Virus record (IMG/VR): IMGVR_UViG_3300044294_000190
Location: 1 to 64,000 of that record
DNA length: 64,000 nt
Source: a virus
Reading direction: 5' to 3' (one strand)
Part shown: positions 52,000 to 56,166 of the stretch, in pieces
Numbering within the stretch: the first letter of the stretch is position 1
Layout of the letters: each line of letters begins with the position of its first letter
Notes under the pieces: generated by a model
What the model was told of the DNA's origin: nothing
The model's database searches: none
What the model saw: the letters and a program-made list of their open reading frames with translations, nothing else
Translations under genes and position numbers: made by a program

Positions 52000-52329
52000 C
52001 TAAACCATTCTGTTTACATGTCCCATGGCTTGTGCCAACGAATGCTGGTATCGAGGCCAGTGCTCGTTTTTAAATTGTAGAAATTGGTGAACTGCCGTGA
52101 TGTATGCGTGAATGTGCGCCGGTGGGTAAAAAAACCCTTCCGTAGAACTTGAAACAAACACTTCAGTGTGATGCCTAAAACGTTCTGCAAGAAAATCAGT
52201 CATGGTTTTAATAAAAGTTGAATCCATTTCTTGCAAACTAATCAATTCTTGAACTTCAATAAGAGTTATGTACTGATCTCCATTTTGAATTAATGGACCA
52301 TTTGCGGTGTCAATAAGTTTGTATTCCAT
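52000..52329 (-). CDS. hypothetical protein, paralog of 54429..54749
   Basis: Shared T..GP.....G and PP....YI.A..QF..FKN....Y; TGATG coupling to the upstream gene. Confidence 0.8.
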   Translation of the reverse strand: MEYKLIDTANGPLIQNGDQYITLIEVQELISLQEMDSTFIKTMTDFLAERFRHHTEVFVSSSTEGFFYPPAHIHAYITAVHQFLQFKNEHWPRYQHSLAQAMGHVNRMV

Positions 52330-52490
52330 CACCATTTTCCAATCGGACACTTTTGAGAAGGAATTCTAGCTTTAATACGCATAAAACAACCGCATTCTTT
52401 GCACTGTCCGGTTGGTTTAAAAAACCTTGGGCAAACTTGACAAATAGAAAAACGTTGTTTAAACCTTGATTCCTCTTGCGTTTCGTTCAT
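52329..52490 (-). CDS. 53-aa six-Cys protein (DUF6171-like)
   Basis: Hand-translated MNETQEESRFKQRFSICQVCPRFFKPTGQCKECGCFMRIKARIPSQKCPIGKW; overlaps both neighbours. Confidence 0.85.
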   Translation of the reverse strand: MNETQEESRFKQRFSICQVCPRFFKPTGQCKECGCFMRIKARIPSQKCPIGKW

Positions 52491-53644
52491 ACAACCACCG
52501 GCTCGTACTCAAAGTTATCAACATTTGATGCAACAGAACCTCCGCTTGTTTCTCCAAAAATAACACCAAACTTTATTCCTCGAGTATCAGACGCTGACGC
52601 GTTATATGTCATAGTTAAAGTTCCCGATCCGTTGTCCATGGGGGCAGATATAGTTACTGTATTGTCTAATGTGAGTACGTTAACATAAGAGGGTCGAGCG
52701 TTTTGGGATGTGTTGATTTCAGGACTAGTTCCAATAGTAGTTATCACACCATTTATTGATTTTCTCAAAATTAAGCGGTGAAGGTGCGCCGTGGAACTAC
52801 CAGTTTGAAGAGTTGCTTCGTAGTTGCAAGCATAGTAGGTATCTGGGTAGGTTATTTGAACGCAATTTCCATGGTACGTATATGGGGTAACGTGATAGTT
52901 AATGATGTCGAAATTTGCCCAACATATGCCATTGTGATAATGCTGCCCAGGGGGACATAGTCCACCTTGAGAGGGGTCAACAGCATTACTAAATATATAG
53001 CAACCACAATTATGAAAAAACCTGTCATAACCTTGACAGCCGGGGGCGGTACTAGCGTCGTAAGGACAACCACCAGTATCAAAACAAGTACAACTTGGGT
53101 AAGTTGGTGTGCAATTAAGTGTTTGGTATGGAGGCCTGCAACAGTTACCACCAGAGACTTCGGTACGTCCAGGTATTGTGCACGTTTTTAAACACGTATT
53201 TCCGGAAAGAGTCCCACCGTTTGGGCATGTGTAAAAACTGTAGGATCCGCTTGATGTGTACTGGTCGGTAGTTACAGAAAACCAGTTATTTTGATCAATT
53301 ACCCAAAAAGCTGCTCCCCATCCCCAGTTAGAAGAACCTTGTCCAATTCGTACCCTTGCCTTTTTAGTGTTTGTACGAATAGTTGCGAGGGGATATGAGG
53401 AAGGAGATGTATTGCTTAATAATCGGTTTGAGGAAATTTGCCAACTACCGCGCAATTTTTCCCATAGCAAGTTTTCCGTTGATATCGTTTCGTTGTTTGC
53501 TCGATTAAAGTCGTCAGTTCTTGCACTTAAAGGTTTAACGTCTAATCGATATGTTCTCTTACCCTTGTTACCGGTTAGGGAAGAATCACGAAATCGTAGT
53601 TGAAAAGTTCGTCGGACAGATGCCGACGACGTTGTGTAAATCAC
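52487..53644 (-). CDS. putative fibre/receptor-binding protein: beta-sandwich with 16-Cys insert
   Basis: DDFNR..RGSW..GAAFWV.D.NNW scaffold ending VDNF; all Cys lie in residues 140-273. Confidence 0.75.
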   Translation of the reverse strand: MIYTTSSASVRRTFQLRFRDSSLTGNKGKRTYRLDVKPLSARTDDFNRANNETISTENLLWEKLRGSWQISSNRLLSNTSPSSYPLATIRTNTKKARVRIGQGSSNWGWGAAFWVIDQNNWFSVTTDQYTSSGSYSFYTCPNGGTLSGNTCLKTCTIPGRTEVSGGNCCRPPYQTLNCTPTYPSCTCFDTGGCPYDASTAPGCQGYDRFFHNCGCYIFSNAVDPSQGGLCPPGQHYHNGICWANFDIINYHVTPYTYHGNCVQITYPDTYYACNYEATLQTGSSTAHLHRLILRKSINGVITTIGTSPEINTSQNARPSYVNVLTLDNTVTISAPMDNGSGTLTMTYNASASDTRGIKFGVIFGETSGGSVASNVDNFEYEPVVV

Positions 53645-53970
53645 GTTATTTCACAACCAAAAATTGTAAATGAAAGATTAGCATTTGACGCATACACCGT
53701 AAAAACATCGTTGGCACTAGAAGTAACACCTAGGGTAAGGGCCACGGTGTCATTAGCTGCCACTGTTGCGTTAAACGCAATGTAGTGCTGATTAGCAAGG
53801 GCCGTTCCGCCGGGTCGCACAGCAAGACGGTATTGCGCATCAGTTGCTCCTCGATTACACACAGTGATTGTAGACGCAACGGACTGCTTACCAGCCCCTA
53901 CCGTGTAGATATCGGTATTAACAGTAGATGCCGGTGCGGATTGAGCAAGAACTTTATATGTTTGAGCCAT
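53641..53970 (-). CDS. small virion/tail appendage protein
   Basis: YKVLAQSAP...YTV...STITVCN...LSFTIFG.EI, a type common in phage fibre clusters. Confidence 0.8.
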   Translation of the reverse strand: MAQTYKVLAQSAPASTVNTDIYTVGAGKQSVASTITVCNRGATDAQYRLAVRPGGTALANQHYIAFNATVAANDTVALTLGVTSSANDVFTVYASNANLSFTIFGCEIT

Positions 53971-54068
53971 AGGATCCCCTGGATTATTTTACCCCAAATC
54001 ACCCGTTGCCGCCAACTCCTGCGCCGCCACCACCTGCGCCGCACGGGTCGGAATGCTACACTCGTTTG

Positions 54069-54374
54069 ATGATGTCGGAGGCAAAAATGATGAAAAATTT
54101 TGATGAAATGACTGACGAGGAAAAACAAGATTTTGTAGCCGCAACTGCGGCAAATAGCCCGGCTATGAACCCAAGCGGATTTGAATTTTTTGCCTTTGTG
54201 GTTGATGGTCAAGTTGCTGCCATGTTCACCCTCACAAAACGGGCAATGGAGAACTACATAGATGCCTTATCGTCAAATCCAACAATCGTAAAACTTGCAG
54301 TTTCTCAAAAAAACGTAGTTGCCGTTGGCTGGGATTACGACGCAGAAACCGGTTCTTTTTCCAAGCCAGAATAG
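54069..54374 (+). CDS. small fibre-assembly-chaperone-like protein
   Basis: FAFVVDG.V...SNPTIV...GWDYD...F..P; TGcTACACT-N6-ATG. Confidence 0.75.
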   Translation: MMSEAKMMKNFDEMTDEEKQDFVAATAANSPAMNPSGFEFFAFVVDGQVAAMFTLTKRAMENYIDALSSNPTIVKLAVSQKNVVAVGWDYDAETGSFSKPE

Positions 54375-54749: not shown

Positions 54750-54910
54750 ACGAAGAATCAAAAAATTCTCTCTATTATAAGGAGCGCTTAGAGATTTGCC
54801 GACAGTGCCCCCGCTTGTTTAAGCCAACCATGCAATGCAAAGAGTGTGGTTGTTTTATGAGGATAAAGACGCGCTTGAAGTCTGCTTCTTGTCCGATCAA
54901 CAAGTGGTAA
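54746..54910 (+). CDS. 54-aa six-Cys protein (DUF6171-like), second copy
   Basis: Hand-translated MNEESKNSLYYKERLEICRQCPRLFKPTMQCKECGCFMRIKTRLKSASCPINKW; ATGA overlap. Confidence 0.85.
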   Translation: MNEESKNSLYYKERLEICRQCPRLFKPTMQCKECGCFMRIKTRLKSASCPINKW

Positions 54911-54920
54911 CAAGGTCCGA

Positions 54921-55685
54921 ATGCCGAAAAATAAATTCGAAACTATTATTTATTGGGCTCCTGGAAATTTTGCAAGTGAAGTCTACGATTTGAATCATTT
55001 GTATCCAGAAGTAAAATCCTTATACGAAGAGTGCCTTGGCAAAAAAGCAAATCTCAAGGACAATGACAACAATTTCTTGATGTGTCCTGCATTTTCGGAT
55101 TTGACCAAAAACACCTTCGTTCACAGATCGTCAGTAGATACTCATGCCAGGTTGGATTTCGTGAGAAAACGAGTTACCTATCCCACGGCAAACCAACTAG
55201 ACCAGAACATTTACAAAGTTCCCCTTAATTTCAAGCACTTGCCGTCTCTTGAGGGTCATAACTTGATTCAATACACGTGGCCGATTCTTTTTTTCTCAGA
55301 AGAGGACAGCATGATGGCGACCTTGACCGCGCCATATTTTGAGAGAACCATCAGCCAAAATTACGGCGTGGTAGTTCCAGGCAGATTTGATATTGGGAAA
55401 TGGTTTAGGAATATGAATGCAGAATTTCAATTGTGGCCAGGAGTGAATGAATTGAACATTCCAGCCAATGAGGCTCTTTTCTATGTTCACTTTGAAACGG
55501 ACAAACAGATAGTTTTCAAGAGATTCATAATGACTCGAGAACTTGAAAGATTGCGAGCCTCAATTGTCAGCGTCTCCCCTTTCAAAAGATTTGCCAGATT
55601 GTCGGAGAGATACAAAGTATTTGAACGGTCTCAGTCAAAACAGAGAATTATAAAATTAATAAAAAAACAACTTGTTGTTGATTGA
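54921..55685 (+). CDS. hypothetical enzyme-like protein (CPA motif; possibly dUTPase-like/DUF6065-related fold)
   Basis: CPAF.D...NTF, FFSE, VPGRFDIGKWFR; fold assignment tentative. Confidence 0.7.
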   Translation: MPKNKFETIIYWAPGNFASEVYDLNHLYPEVKSLYEECLGKKANLKDNDNNFLMCPAFSDLTKNTFVHRSSVDTHARLDFVRKRVTYPTANQLDQNIYKVPLNFKHLPSLEGHNLIQYTWPILFFSEEDSMMATLTAPYFERTISQNYGVVVPGRFDIGKWFRNMNAEFQLWPGVNELNIPANEALFYVHFETDKQIVFKRFIMTRELERLRASIVSVSPFKRFARLSERYKVFERSQSKQRIIKLIKKQLVVD

Positions 55686-55695
55686 GTAATCTTTT

Positions 55696-56166
55696 CTAAG
55701 AGTACATCGTTGCGTTGTAGGTTGCCGGATACACGCATGTCGTTCCGCTCAACGAGGCTGCGCTTGAGTTCACTGGACAAGAGTACGACGTGACATTCTG
55801 GGTAATGTAATACGGCGCGTAGCAGCCACCACTTGTGTTTCCAAGAGGATGCCAACCGGGGGCATAGCACTGGCAACCAAGACTAAAGCAGCCAATGCAA
55901 TTTGAATACGGACAGCCACTACACGAACAACAGCTACTCCAAGTCGATGGGTCGGAGCCCCACGCGCCGCCGCCACTATGGCAACCCTGGACCTGTTGTT
56001 GAGTTGTGGTGGCTGTGGCAGCATAGTTCGCCGGATAATAACATTTTTTGTCGGCATTGTTCAAAACGGCTATTCCAGAATGCGTGTTGCACAGCCAAAA
56101 CGTACTTCTTCGAGTCAATCCAAATTTTCTGGACGATCCGCCGCCTATCTTGTTTGTGAATGGCAT
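55696..56166 (-). CDS. 156-aa Cys-rich putative fibre tip protein (14 Cys)
   Basis: GGGSSRKFG N-terminus, two C..C-x-YPAxYxAT units flanking a 10-Cys core. Confidence 0.78.
   Translation of the reverse strand: MPFTNKIGGGSSRKFGLTRRSTFWLCNTHSGIAVLNNADKKCYYPANYAATATTTQQQVQGCHSGGGAWGSDPSTWSSCCSCSGCPYSNCIGCFSLGCQCYAPGWHPLGNTSGGCYAPYYITQNVTSYSCPVNSSAASLSGTTCVYPATYNATMYS

Follow-up and report, generated by a model that had tools for sequence, protein, structure and literature searches.

Why should two cysteine-rich genes in the tail-fiber region of a single virus each be accompanied by their own small partner genes? This question is raised by a myovirus-like IMG/VR contig, of which 64,000 nucleotides (the window) were analyzed. 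The original prediction proposed that each cysteine-rich adhesin travels with a cognate folding, oxidation, or modification kit; reading of the sequence confirmed its gene positions, its cysteine counts, and the plus-strand operon facing the second cysteine-rich gene (Table 1), and our analysis partly supported its interpretation. We read the region as the distal tail-fiber module of an uncultured myovirus, in which CysA and CysB are presumed receptor-binding proteins. This adhesin label derives from their context, namely glycine-rich fibers and the 293-aa fiber protein, which matches Mtd_N (PF18454, 65.7 bits against a cut-off of 26.3) and many PHROG tail-fiber families. The recurrent pairing described below suggests that cysteine-rich tip proteins are made with the aid of a helper system not described before.

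Table 1. Features of the studied region, in window coordinates.
Feature	Coordinates	Strand	Remarks
223-aa protein	50206..50877	-	possible operon member downstream of GT362; weak KTSC-domain match
GT362, GT-B/GT4-like glycosyltransferase	50911..51999	-	last gene of CysA-D1-X1 operon
X1, 109 aa	52000..52329	-	family X; partner protein
D1, 53 aa, 6 Cys	52329..52490	-	DUF6171; coupled to CysA and X1
CysA, 385 aa, 16 Cys	52487..53644	-	presumed receptor-binding tail-fiber tip protein
p109, 109 aa	53641..53970	-	first gene of CysA operon; overlaps CysA start
FAFVV-family protein, ~101 aa	54069..54374	+	likely ATG at 54069; ORF open from 54006
X2, 106 aa	54429..54749	+	family X; partner protein
D2, 54 aa, 6 Cys	54746..54910	+	DUF6171; ATGA-coupled to X2
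p254, 254 aa	54921..55685	+	'CPA-motif' protein; phrog_17480 (4e-30)
CysB, 156 aa, 14 Cys	55696..56166	-	directly downstream of Mtd_N fiber gene
293-aa tail-fiber protein	56179..57060	-	Mtd_N domain; upstream of CysB

The two six-cysteine proteins belong to DUF6171 (PF19668 at 32.4 bits for D1 and 38.9 bits for D2, cut-off 27; phrog_13558 at 4e-16 and 1e-18, respectively). D1, with the pattern C-x2-C-x9-C-x2-C-x-C-x12-C-P-x-G-K-W, shares 63% identity with D2 (E 1e-24), and X1 and X2 are homologues at 29% identity (E 9e-11), as expected for the second copies that had been predicted. Both six-cysteine genes, absent from the ORF track, fall below the 60-aa default of ORF lists, and 9 of the 40 listed GenBank phage records had no annotated feature beneath the match. 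Translational coupling of CysA, D1, and X1 was evident from overlapping codons: the CysA stop and D1 start share ATGA, the X1 start shares 1 nt with the D1 stop (TGATG), and GT362 begins right after the X1 stop. On the other strand, the X2 stop and D2 start likewise overlap as ATGA, with p254 starting 10 nt past D2. In a second DUF6171 subfamily, the proteins encoded immediately before DUF6171 were related to the FAFVV protein by profile-profile comparison (k90, 98%; k12, 91%; k124, 82% probability).

CysA, which had no sequence match in Pfam, PHROG, or the PDB, comprises conserved N-terminal (~aa 45-124) and C-terminal (~aa 287-383) parts flanking a hypervariable cysteine-rich insert, and this middle part could not be aligned across its family. 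CysB matched no family in Pfam or PHROG. The two showed no detectable overall homology (best E 0.29) and have only a short hairpin-type motif in common, Y-x-C-P...L-S-G-x-T-C followed by Y-x-A-T. CysB homologues occur in 8 of the 80 viral loci nearest D2 (subfamily 1); in L006/L008, L010, and L012, the CysB homologue is followed on the same strand by FAFVV-X-D-p254, and the window therefore carries an inverted version of this four-gene cassette.

Recurrence was examined in subfamily 1 and in the 79 loci of subfamily 2, which come from related phages, such that the counts are non-independent and neighboring genes are co-inherited whatever their function. In the forward test, X lay beside DUF6171 in 61/80 loci and a CysA-like ORF was present in 44/80, always on the same strand and upstream of DUF6171; among non-redundant loci, 26 of 29 CysA-like ORFs ended within 18 nt of the DUF6171 start, and the other three had X in between. 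The reverse test, which used the CysA N-domain alone as a query and covered 76 loci in which the sequence continued for 400 nt or more downstream (not de-duplicated), found DUF6171 within 700 nt downstream in 67 and at 2.3 kb in four more; X was within 1 kb in 49 loci, never without DUF6171. An ORF with at least 8 cysteines was found within 1.5 kb upstream in 43/60 non-redundant loci of subfamily 1 and 38/61 of subfamily 2, compared with 21/389 and 11/282 background genes elsewhere in the same loci. These upstream ORFs formed 15 BLAST clusters plus 10 singletons and, judged by sequence, have cysteines in common rather than ancestry. The same order recurred in Leptospira phage LE1 (a 129-aa ORF with 12 cysteines, an unannotated DUF6171 gene, and a 111-aa ORF), while in the S-IOM18 group, a cysteine-rich fiber-like ORF is followed by a CPQC thioredoxin-like ORF (Pfam E 0.0014, below the cut-off) and then DUF6171. 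The predicted co-occurrence thus held in both test directions, extending to cysteine-rich proteins unrelated in sequence, and copy number often agreed as well, with two DUF6171 genes for two cysteine-rich genes in the window, in G003, and in the L033+L071 contig.

We tentatively favor, at somewhat less than an even chance, the reading that DUF6171 together with X or FAFVV provides accessory or maturation factors devoted to the neighboring cysteine-rich receptor-binding protein. Several observations count against it. DUF6171 was lacking from 5 of the 76 CysA-like loci (L218, L219, L225, L233, and L254), and no upstream ORF with at least 8 cysteines was found in 17/60 (subfamily 1) and 23/61 (subfamily 2) non-redundant loci; some of the 17 reflect missed gene calls, as in L008, where a CysB homologue is present. 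The partners do occur independently of cysteine-rich genes in part, an outcome that the original prediction had named as contrary to it: DUF6171 is surrounded by small early genes close to nrdA in Stenotrophomonas phage IME-SM1 and Xanthomonas phage BUDD, is the first gene of a RusA/exonuclease operon in S-CBS1, and has no cysteine-rich neighbor in its second copy in G005.

Such diverse contexts would suit a small zinc-ribbon protein of general use, such as a regulator or a factor directed at the host, that has no functional link to the cysteine-rich genes and is co-inherited with its neighbors in a hypervariable, often exchanged fiber region where small genes pile up. The phylogenetic relatedness of the loci, the rarity of DUF6171 in bacteria (seven loci in bacterial genome contigs; 2 of 201 genomes of one phylum), and a Helicobacter genome encoding a VTT/DedA membrane protein with a fused DUF6171-like domain are in keeping with this account. 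However, the association was found whichever gene was the starting point and in both DUF6171 subfamilies, whose partner genes differ, it extends to unrelated cysteine-rich proteins, the start/stop overlaps are conserved across loci, and the linkage survives rearrangement (D-X order, X-D order, and inverted cassette), which makes the absence of any link improbable.

The predicted kit is constant only in its DUF6171 member. Family X is specific to subfamily 1 (61/80 loci against 2/79), and FAFVV, found in 9/80 loci of subfamily 1, occurs in 38/79 of subfamily 2, where X is replaced. The AlphaFold2 model of X2 (pLDDT 94.9) predicted three short strands followed by three helices, for which a structural search found no match, and the family comprised 57 representative clusters among 1.84 billion proteins. 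In the X tree, X2 and four other X proteins linked to CysB form a clade (support 99/95), and X1 forms a long branch among the CysA-linked ones. The age of the X2 clade bears out the claim that the two sets are not a recent duplication; the two X copies of the L033/L071 contig are each other's sisters, however, so cognate pairing is not always ancient.

Enzyme genes near the cassettes raise the alternative that this is a fiber-modification island. Its enzymes, which would hydroxylate and glycosylate the fibers, would be a GT4-like glycosyltransferase, the dUTPase-fold p254, DUF6065 proteins, and 2OG-Fe(II) oxygenases; the small proteins would serve them as accessory subunits or adaptors, and the cysteines of the client would be incidental. 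GT362, which closes the CysA-D1-X1 operon, matched phrog_7162 glycosyltransferase (4e-37) and partially NCBIfam TuaH (3e-9), with Pfam Glyco_trans_1_4 at 16.7 bits, under the cut-off of 27. In the model of p254 (pLDDT 82.5), which follows D2, a dUTPase/dCTP-deaminase-like beta core (aa 7-195) is joined to a C-terminal helical hairpin; its best Foldseek match was ASFV dUTPase (E 1.3e-4, TMq 0.36), and VIA-align ranks 1-21 were all dUTPase, dCTP-deaminase, or herpesvirus dUTPase-like (Z 8.3-4.9). Its predicted CPA motif was borne out in 13 homologues, with C55-P56 invariant and A57 nearly so. Subfamily-2 DUF6171 genes are followed by the DUF6065 proteins k17 (Pfam 5.7e-32; 18/79 loci) and the related k3 (hhalign 98%; 20/79), or by the 2OG-like family k10 (12/79); in L015, a 2OG-FeII_Oxy_3 protein lies between two DUF6171 genes. 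L233 and L254 carry a CysA-like ORF and FAFVV, then putative 2OG-like, DUF6065-like, GT-like, and NAD-epimerase/dehydratase-like ORFs. These enzymes are nevertheless variable, each being present in a minority of loci (GT362 homologues in 4/80; p254 homologues in 18/80 and 0/79), and in L233 and L254, they do without DUF6171. The common denominator is DUF6171 plus a cysteine-rich ORF, and the modification account leaves unexplained both the cysteine richness of at least 15 unrelated clusters and the presence of one DUF6171 gene per cysteine-rich gene; we consider it unlikely. Two further operon genes were sparsely distributed: p109 (phrog_11338 tail fiber protein, 1e-6) has homologues in 10/80 loci, and the 223-aa protein (KTSC E 0.0057, below the cut-off) has homologues downstream of D-X in 6/80.

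Each of the two cysteine-rich genes has its own small cassette, the constant member being the ~50-aa DUF6171 protein and its partner being X in one subfamily, FAFVV in the other, or both. Under the accessory reading, these proteins, translated from the mRNA of their client, would act one-to-one, possibly by direct contact and as chaperones, during client folding and fiber joining in the reducing cytoplasm. The variable parts of both presumed receptor-binding proteins appear to hold even numbers of cysteines in disulfide-hairpin-like motifs. Even counts were found in 44/47 upstream ORFs (range, 6 to 26; many not multiples of four), a pattern easier to reconcile with disulfide pairs than with Cys4 metal sites alone, although background ORFs with at least 6 cysteines were also mostly even (14/18), which weakens this argument. 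Within DUF6171 (D2 numbering), C18, C21, C31, and C49 probably bind a structural metal in a zinc-ribbon-like knuckle, while C34-x-C36 may be a pair with a function of its own, separable from that site, and could swap disulfides with client cysteines or pass metal to them; in the four-cysteine paralogues of L072 and L076, exactly C34 and C36 are missing and the other four are kept. The DUF6171 cassette may act on thiols or metals. Searches of D, X, and FAFVV returned no match to known chaperone, oxidoreductase, or metallochaperone families, and a PDB profile search with DUF6171 gave insignificant zinc-ribbon matches only (bL33, E 0.18). Because no thioredoxin, glutaredoxin, Erv, Dsb, or other recognized oxidoreductase was found among the 84 window ORFs scanned, the window has no recognizable oxidant and the predicted oxidation role is conjecture.

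DUF6171 is far more conserved (51-83% identity across subfamily 1) than its hypervariable supposed client, which a conserved ligand or host partner would explain no less well than the accessory reading. A structural role is a further alternative: DUF6171 and X or FAFVV might remain part of the virion, joining the cysteine-rich tip to the fiber as a small metal-bound cap or adaptor, much like the small distal protein that stays on the fiber tip in some phages. Stoichiometric partners would be expected to show the translational coupling and one-to-one pairing of genes seen here, and the invariant K-W with which most DUF6171 proteins end is suggestive of a docking tail; the early-gene and DNA-metabolism neighborhoods in other phages and the lack of detected similarity to known structural proteins argue against this structural role, which we regard as decidedly improbable.

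The accessory reading has its closest parallel in the tail-fiber assembly chaperones encoded directly downstream of fiber genes, such as T4 gp38 and gp57A and the Tfa-type proteins of lambda, P2, and Mu. In both cases, a small gene immediately follows the distal fiber or receptor-binding gene, to which it is often coupled; the two are swapped together as a cassette, with one accessory gene for each fiber gene. However, no Tfa, gp38, or gp57A match was found in Pfam or PHROG, the X fold is without a match, and the accessory here is a six-cysteine metal-type protein plus a second small protein, with clients marked out by their many cysteines and not by a beta-helix or Gly-rich tip. Virus-encoded glycosyltransferases glycosylate the virions of mycobacteriophages and chloroviruses, and their genes likewise stand beside structural genes, as does the GT4-like gene ending the CysA operon; the putative GT-like and sugar-epimerase-like ORFs after the fiber genes of L233 and L254 also recall these systems. 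Fiber glycosylation is putative here, and we know of no described link between virion glycosylation and small six-cysteine proteins or cysteine-rich clients.

Small cysteine-motif proteins also put disulfides into cysteine-rich clients without the usual machinery, as proposed here, in the poxvirus E10R-A2.5L-G4L pathway, a virus-encoded cytoplasmic system, and in the mitochondrial Mia40/Erv1 relay, where the core of Mia40, ~60 residues long, likewise has six conserved cysteines, two of which form an active C-x-C pair. The window differs in having no Erv/ALR flavin oxidase or thioredoxin fold, and DUF6171, whose redox activity is putative, has a different cysteine spacing and no homology to these proteins. 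Zinc-center chaperones such as Hsp33, with its C-x-C...C-x2-C switch, and the DnaJ zinc-finger domain combine a Cys4-type zinc site with holdase or thiol-active behavior toward unfolded clients; their C-x-C and C-x2-C motifs resemble those of DUF6171, which at ~50 aa has no chaperone body. For the freshwater cyanomyophage Pam3, whose tail fibers and baseplate are disulfide-linked, the portions of the account available describe no dedicated bond-making genes, and the cysteines join wedge and fiber rather than building a hypervariable tip module as here (PMC9942802). Even so, Pam3 fiber attachment needs disulfides between cysteine-rich regions and the fibers are released by DTT, which shows that phage tail proteins from a cytoplasm can become disulfide-bonded (PMC9942802).

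The window is taken from an IMG/VR virus record of 73.6 kb, of which it forms the first 64 kb. Our PHROG and Pfam scans indicated a myovirus-like phage that encodes, almost entirely on the minus strand, a family-A DNA polymerase, helicases, and a RecA/UvsX-like protein together with baseplate wedge, sheath, tube, major head, and portal proteins and a large terminase. Genes of fibre type occupy the stretch from approximately 63.9 kb down to 55.7 kb; their products include proteins with Gly-rich domains, an FN3 domain, and a fibre with an Mtd_N domain. A blastn search of 50,697 phage records revealed no close relative of this region at the DNA level, only a single 72-nt match. 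Every gene named in the original prediction was recovered in its place, and the observation that two Cys-rich genes (CysA and CysB, presumed tail-fibre tip proteins) stand beside small partner genes was confirmed and could be extended to other phages. Start and stop codons overlap between CysA and D1 (ATGA), D1 and X1 (TGATG), and X2 and D2 (ATGA), where D1 and D2 are small six-Cys proteins and X1 and X2 their partners. The plus-strand cassette, in the order FAFVV, X2, D2, and p254, is inverted compared with its relatives (L006/L008, L010, and L012), and this inversion creates a 100-bp divergent intergenic region (53970-54069). The possibility that the four genes form an invertible segment was rejected, as flanking inverted repeats were absent and just two short internal pairs were found. 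Scans for promoters and terminators gave counts close to those expected by chance (13 against 12.7; 7 against 8.4). PADLOC assigned none of the 11 cassette proteins to an anti-phage defence family, and ten of the 11 were without a match in NCBIfam, the glycosyltransferase-like protein having sub-threshold partial matches alone.

Features of the Cys-rich fibre region of the window
Feature	Position	Strand	Remarks
Mtd_N fibre	56179-57060	-	293 aa; gene precedes CysB; 65.7 bits for Pfam PF18454 (cut-off, 26.3)
CysB	55696-56166	-	156 aa, 14 Cys; follows the Mtd_N fibre gene; faced by the plus-strand cassette
FAFVV	probable ATG start at 54069	+	first gene of the cassette FAFVV-X2-D2-p254
p109	53641-53970	-	first gene of the minus-strand operon
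CysA	52487-53644	-	385 aa, 16 Cys
D1	52329-52490	-	53 aa, 6 Cys
X1	52000-52329	-	follows D1 in the operon
Glycosyltransferase-like protein	50911-51999	-	362 aa; after X1 in the operon
223-aa protein	50206-50877	-	last listed gene of the CysA operon

Elsewhere in the window, a 211-aa protein encoded between the portal gene and a metallophosphoesterase (42021-42656, minus strand) matched the Pfam Proteasome-subunit family (E 1.2e-7; 32 bits; cut-off, 22.4) and may be a prohead protease of the Ntn-hydrolase type. A 106-aa protein (5780-6100, minus strand), adjoined by a PDDEXK_15 nuclease, matched SpoVS (PF04232, 8e-19), which is unusual for a phage replication module.

D1 and D2 matched the Pfam family DUF6171 (PF19668) with 32.4 and 38.9 bits, respectively, both above the gathering threshold of 27, and a six-frame search of the contig with this model pointed to these two places and no others. 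Since the matches cover only profile positions 35-80 of 80, the phage proteins correspond to the C-terminal core of the family model. Both proteins also matched phrog_13558, which, like DUF6171, is a label for an orphan family without an assigned function. D1 and D2 are 63% identical, and the six cysteines, the F-K-P-T stretch, C-K-E-C-G-C-F, and the terminal C-P-x-G-K-W were kept in 12/12 aligned sequences, with C-K-C or C-N-C substituting for C-G-C in variant members. A second, fused DUF6171-like domain in two viral loci (L072 and L076) retains C18, C21, C31, and C49 and has lost both C34 and C36; from these two related sequences, we infer that DUF6171 may combine a four-Cys structural metal site with a separable C-x-C pair. 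A PDB profile search with DUF6171 returned zinc-finger/zinc-ribbon and bL33 matches, all insignificant (best E 0.014, no passing stretch). No match to the tail-fibre chaperone families (Caudo_TAP/Tfa, T4 gp38, and gp57A) was obtained with D1, D2, X1, X2, or FAFVV (Pfam at E ≤0.1; PHROGs at E ≤0.01), which lowers the chance that one of them is a Tfa, but not the chance that it acts in the manner of one. The small DUF6171 gene is often overlooked by annotation: nine of 40 listed GenBank phage records (e.g., KF114876, MG271909, NC_013021, NC_048049, and ON758385) carry no feature under the match.

The association of DUF6171 with Cys-rich fibre genes was followed in both directions. A tblastn search with D2 recovered 141 records of cultured phages, among them 107 for Synechococcus, 16 for Stenotrophomonas, and 7 for Rhizobium, and the gene was present in at least 588 and at least 602 viral contigs in two IMG/VR searches whose results may overlap. 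The first set of loci comprised the best 80 (nearest D2) of those at least 588, and the second comprised 79 other loci, of at least 602, found with the S-IOM18 protein, a member of a second DUF6171 subfamily. In set 1, X was detected at 50/80 loci by BLASTP with X1, 47/80 with X2, and 61/80 with an X profile, alongside homologues of CysA (44/80), CysB (8/80), p254 (18/80), FAFVV (8/80 by BLASTP), and the glycosyltransferase-like protein (4/80). All 44 CysA-like ORFs preceded DUF6171 and shared its strand; once duplicate loci had been removed (80 reduced to 56), 26/29 of them ended no more than 18 nt from the start of DUF6171, with X intervening in the remaining three. In the reverse direction, the CysA N-domain alone (alignment A6) served as a profile-independent query, with which 80 loci were fetched. 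Where the CysA-like ORF was followed by at least 400 nt of sequence (76 loci, duplicates kept, many from near-identical phages), DUF6171 was encoded within 700 nt downstream in 67 and approximately 2.3 kb downstream in four, and was absent in five; X was found within 1 kb in 49 and never without DUF6171. In three of the loci lacking DUF6171 (L218, L219, and L225), a 20-Cys CysA-like ORF is followed by a 51-aa ORF without cysteines, and in the other two (L233 and L254, about 4270-7240) by FAFVV and then four ORFs. X and CysA were scarce in set 2 (2/79 and 4/79, respectively), where the layout paralleled that of set 1: a fibre gene, a Cys-rich ORF (8-45 Cys), a 70-190-aa low-Cys protein, DUF6171, and 200-300-aa proteins.

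The X proteins X1 and X2 share 29% identity (E 9e-11), and the family had no match in Pfam, PHROG, NCBIfam, or PADLOC. An X profile searched against 1.84 billion representative proteins retrieved only 57 clusters, about 48 of which were 76-134-aa proteins, and the remainder (long proteins, many short stretches) were taken as probable noise. The AlphaFold2 model of X (pLDDT 94.9) consists of three short strands followed by three helices; Foldseek found nothing in the PDB at E ≤0.001, the best wide VIA-align match (Z 7.0) was to generic helical hairpins, and an ESM Atlas search gave nothing usable. BFVD returned three proteins and no others, all from uncultured phages, uncharacterised, and presumably related to X (19-27% identity). 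When X (alignment A4) and DUF6171 (alignment A2) were modelled as a complex, the score was 0.00 in two runs whose controls did not fold, an outcome that speaks neither for nor against binding. Kinship between X and FAFVV-type families was unsupported by hhalign (all pairs at ≤30% probability). FAFVV itself aligned with protein families lying directly upstream of second-subfamily DUF6171 (k90, 98%; k12, 91%; k124, 82%), and an iterated profile placed the FAFVV family at 38/79 loci in set 2 (28 directly upstream of DUF6171) and 9/80 in set 1, so that X or FAFVV was present at 64/80 and 40/79 loci in sets 1 and 2, respectively. A tree was built from 43 distinct X proteins, taken only from loci with an X match and trimmed to the last 112 residues; in it, X2 fell within a five-member CysB-linked clade (support 99/95), and X1 formed a long branch among CysA-linked X proteins. 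These positions indicate that the two copies in the window are old paralogues traveling with different client types. The two X proteins of another genome with two sets (L033/L071) are sisters in the same tree (98/95), which points to a more recent duplication or conversion there. A separate family of 112-129-aa proteins starting with M-A-H-F-A-x-I/L is encoded just before Gly-rich fibre genes (L006:2296-2664 and 7336-7704, plus strand; L132, L151, L158, and L063) and directly upstream of DUF6171 in three loci; its pattern recalls the FAFVV family, yet the hhalign link is ≤30%.

The ORFs upstream of DUF6171 were enriched in cysteines. With genes called greedily, one set for each locus, and counting de-duplicated loci that had at least 900 nt upstream, a same-strand ORF with at least eight cysteines ended within 1.5 kb upstream of DUF6171 at 43/60 loci in set 1 and 38/61 in set 2, compared with 21/389 and 11/282, respectively, of the genes that encode at least 100 aa and are located elsewhere in those loci; the gene caller was crude (the CysB homologue in L008 was missed), and related phages are non-independent observations. 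These upstream ORFs fell into 15 BLAST clusters and 10 singletons, with cluster 0 inflated by single linkage via low-complexity Cys matches. The companions of DUF6171 therefore share cysteine richness, not ancestry, and we see in this the strongest argument for the cysteines being the feature that counts. The CysA-like ORFs contained 6, 8, 10, 12, 14, 16, 18, 20, 22, or 26 cysteines, and the count was even in 44/47 of the most Cys-rich upstream ORFs with at least six cysteines (one per locus), a parity that is merely suggestive because background genes with at least six cysteines were also even in 14/18. Five whole records carried 1, 1, 2, 2, and 2 copies of PF19668. Both copies in one of them (G003) follow a Cys-rich ORF, in the orders 16-Cys ORF, FAFVV, and DUF6171, and 12-Cys CysB-like ORF, X, and DUF6171; the second copy in another (G005) has no Cys-rich neighbour, and the L033/L071 contig carries two sets, as in the window.

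CysA and CysB show no overall homology. Common to both is a short motif, Y-x-C-P...L-S-G-x-T-C followed by Y-x-A-T, which recurs in CysA-family inserts of other phages and accounts for the weak CysB matches to L061 (4e-7) and L070 (3e-6). In the CysA family, conserved N- and C-terminal parts flank a Cys-rich middle for which no alignment between phages is possible. A sequence-profile search of the PDB gave no match for the family, and a Pfam scan of 24 members revealed no consistent family. The initial idea of a ConA/LamG-like sandwich formed by these conserved flanks found no support in any test and was dropped. Fibre-region proteins at two further loci (L078:2398-3087 and L015:2368-3087) join an FN3 domain, a proline-rich linker (a P-P-F-F repeat run in L078 and a poly-Pro run in L015), and a Cys-rich tail, and L015 also encodes a 2OG-FeII_Oxy_3 (prolyl-hydroxylase-type) protein nearby.

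Frequent glycosyltransferase, 2OG-oxygenase, and DUF6065 neighbours sustain a rival but less likely reading, namely that the region is a fibre hydroxylation/glycosylation island. The 362-aa protein of the CysA operon matched phrog_7162 ('glycosyltransferase', 4e-37) over nearly its full length, with sub-threshold Pfam matches to Glyco_trans_1_4 (16.7 bits; cut-off, 27) and Glyco_transf_4 (14.9 bits; cut-off, 28.5) and a partial NCBIfam match to TuaH (3e-9) far under its cut-off, and is a candidate GT-B-type (GT4-like) glycosyltransferase. Among the proteins encoded downstream of DUF6171 in set 2 are a 2OG-oxygenase-like family and true members of DUF6065 (k17, Pfam 5.7e-32, to which k3 is related). 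Read from their translations, the four ORFs at L233 and L254 look like a putative 2OG-oxygenase, DUF6065, glycosyltransferase, and NAD-dependent epimerase/dehydratase, and this group may be a virion glycosylation cluster. Among the papers listed for cyanophage tail fibres with 2OG-Fe oxygenases and glycosyltransferases, none described a system of the kind seen here. p254 (phrog_17480) was considered as DUF6065 (PF19541), to which the sole pointer was an ESM-Atlas feature search (score 0.97, family on 12-15% of members); this identity was rejected, since neither p254 nor 12 homologues matched the Pfam family and hhalign of the p254 family with k17 and k3 gave 1% and 0.5%. The p254 model (pLDDT 82.5) comprises a beta core and then a C-terminal helical hairpin. 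The core modestly resembled trimeric dUTPases/dCTP deaminases in Foldseek (E 1.3e-4, TMq 0.36) and in VIA-align, where ranks 1-21 all belonged to that superfamily (Z 8.3, RMSD 3.0 over 122 residues), with a Z of about 8 lying within the chance range according to the tool's note. Concerning thiol chemistry, a Pfam scan of 14 + 70 window ORFs found no thiol-disulfide oxidoreductase (thioredoxin fold, DsbA, or Erv/ALR), and a CPQC thioredoxin-like ORF in the slot upstream of DUF6171 was seen in the S-IOM18 group only (5 records; Pfam E 0.0014, below cut-off). ORFs annotated as 'DNA endonuclease V' adjoin or lie near DUF6171 in the cyanomyoviruses S-IOM18 (L003:3730-4335) and Syn9 (L095:2796-3389); the former has no Pfam family and, by eye, an H-x-D...H pattern, and its annotation may be doubtful.

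DUF6171 was also found apart from Cys-rich fibres. Its neighbours in Stenotrophomonas phage IME-SM1 and Xanthomonas phage BUDD are small genes, with an HD phosphohydrolase and nrdA close by; in S-CBS1 it is upstream of RusA, and in PSS2 it stands between a tail protein and the tape-measure gene, with no Cys-rich neighbour in any of these four phages. Such copies indicate a molecular activity without a strict need for a fibre client. Bacterial DUF6171 was rare (seven loci, mostly MAG contigs; 2/201 genomes in the phylum of the Helicobacter match), and its context was uninformative. On the Helicobacter sp. contig, a VTT/DedA membrane protein (L092:4263-5132; PF09335, 3e-13) ends in a DUF6171-like domain (E 1.6e-4, below cut-off).

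Collectively, a cassette-borne accessory system for Cys-rich receptor-binding proteins fits the region best. Within it, DUF6171 may exchange disulfides, carry metal, simply hold the module in its reduced form, or remain part of the virion. The original prediction had each Cys-rich fibre protein traveling with its own folding, oxidation, or modification kit, and it is supported in part: the association held in the forward, reverse, and enrichment analyses, whereas the kit proved modular rather than fixed and its chemistry is putative. A more specific mechanism, which we consider rather unlikely, is that DUF6171 would act as a zinc-scaffolded C-x-C thiol-disulfide oxidoreductase/isomerase or metallochaperone, guided by X or FAFVV, that installs or proof-reads the disulfide knots of hypervariable receptor-binding modules in the reducing cytoplasm, with partner-less copies serving other Cys-rich clients. 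If this cysteine-maturation reading is true, bacteriophages would have a pathway dedicated to the oxidative folding of their virion proteins, the first of its kind to be described. Phage host range is decided by receptor-binding proteins, and those of many uncultured aquatic phages appear to be built from hypervariable cysteine-knot modules; the DUF6171 gene offers the best handle on how such modules fold in a reducing bacterial cytoplasm. If DUF6171 and its partner are needed, co-expression would be required to make these proteins for structural work, host prediction, and engineering, and if the two perform thiol chemistry, they would represent a new kind of phage-encoded folding catalyst. 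Our analysis also defined two new families, X and FAFVV, and provided functional context for DUF6171 and phrog_13558.

In the searched literature, no paper uses the names 'DUF6171' or 'DUF6065', no description of a linkage between DUF6171 and Cys-rich fibre genes was found, and Pam3 alone was relevant among the matches on cysteine-rich or disulfide-bonded phage tail fibres. The tail of this freshwater myophage demonstrates that virion tail proteins can be disulfide-bonded (PMC9942802), and that study is not known to describe maturation genes for it. The arrangement of the window resembles that of fibre genes with their assembly chaperones, but here the proteins are unrelated to those chaperones and are linked to cysteine content.
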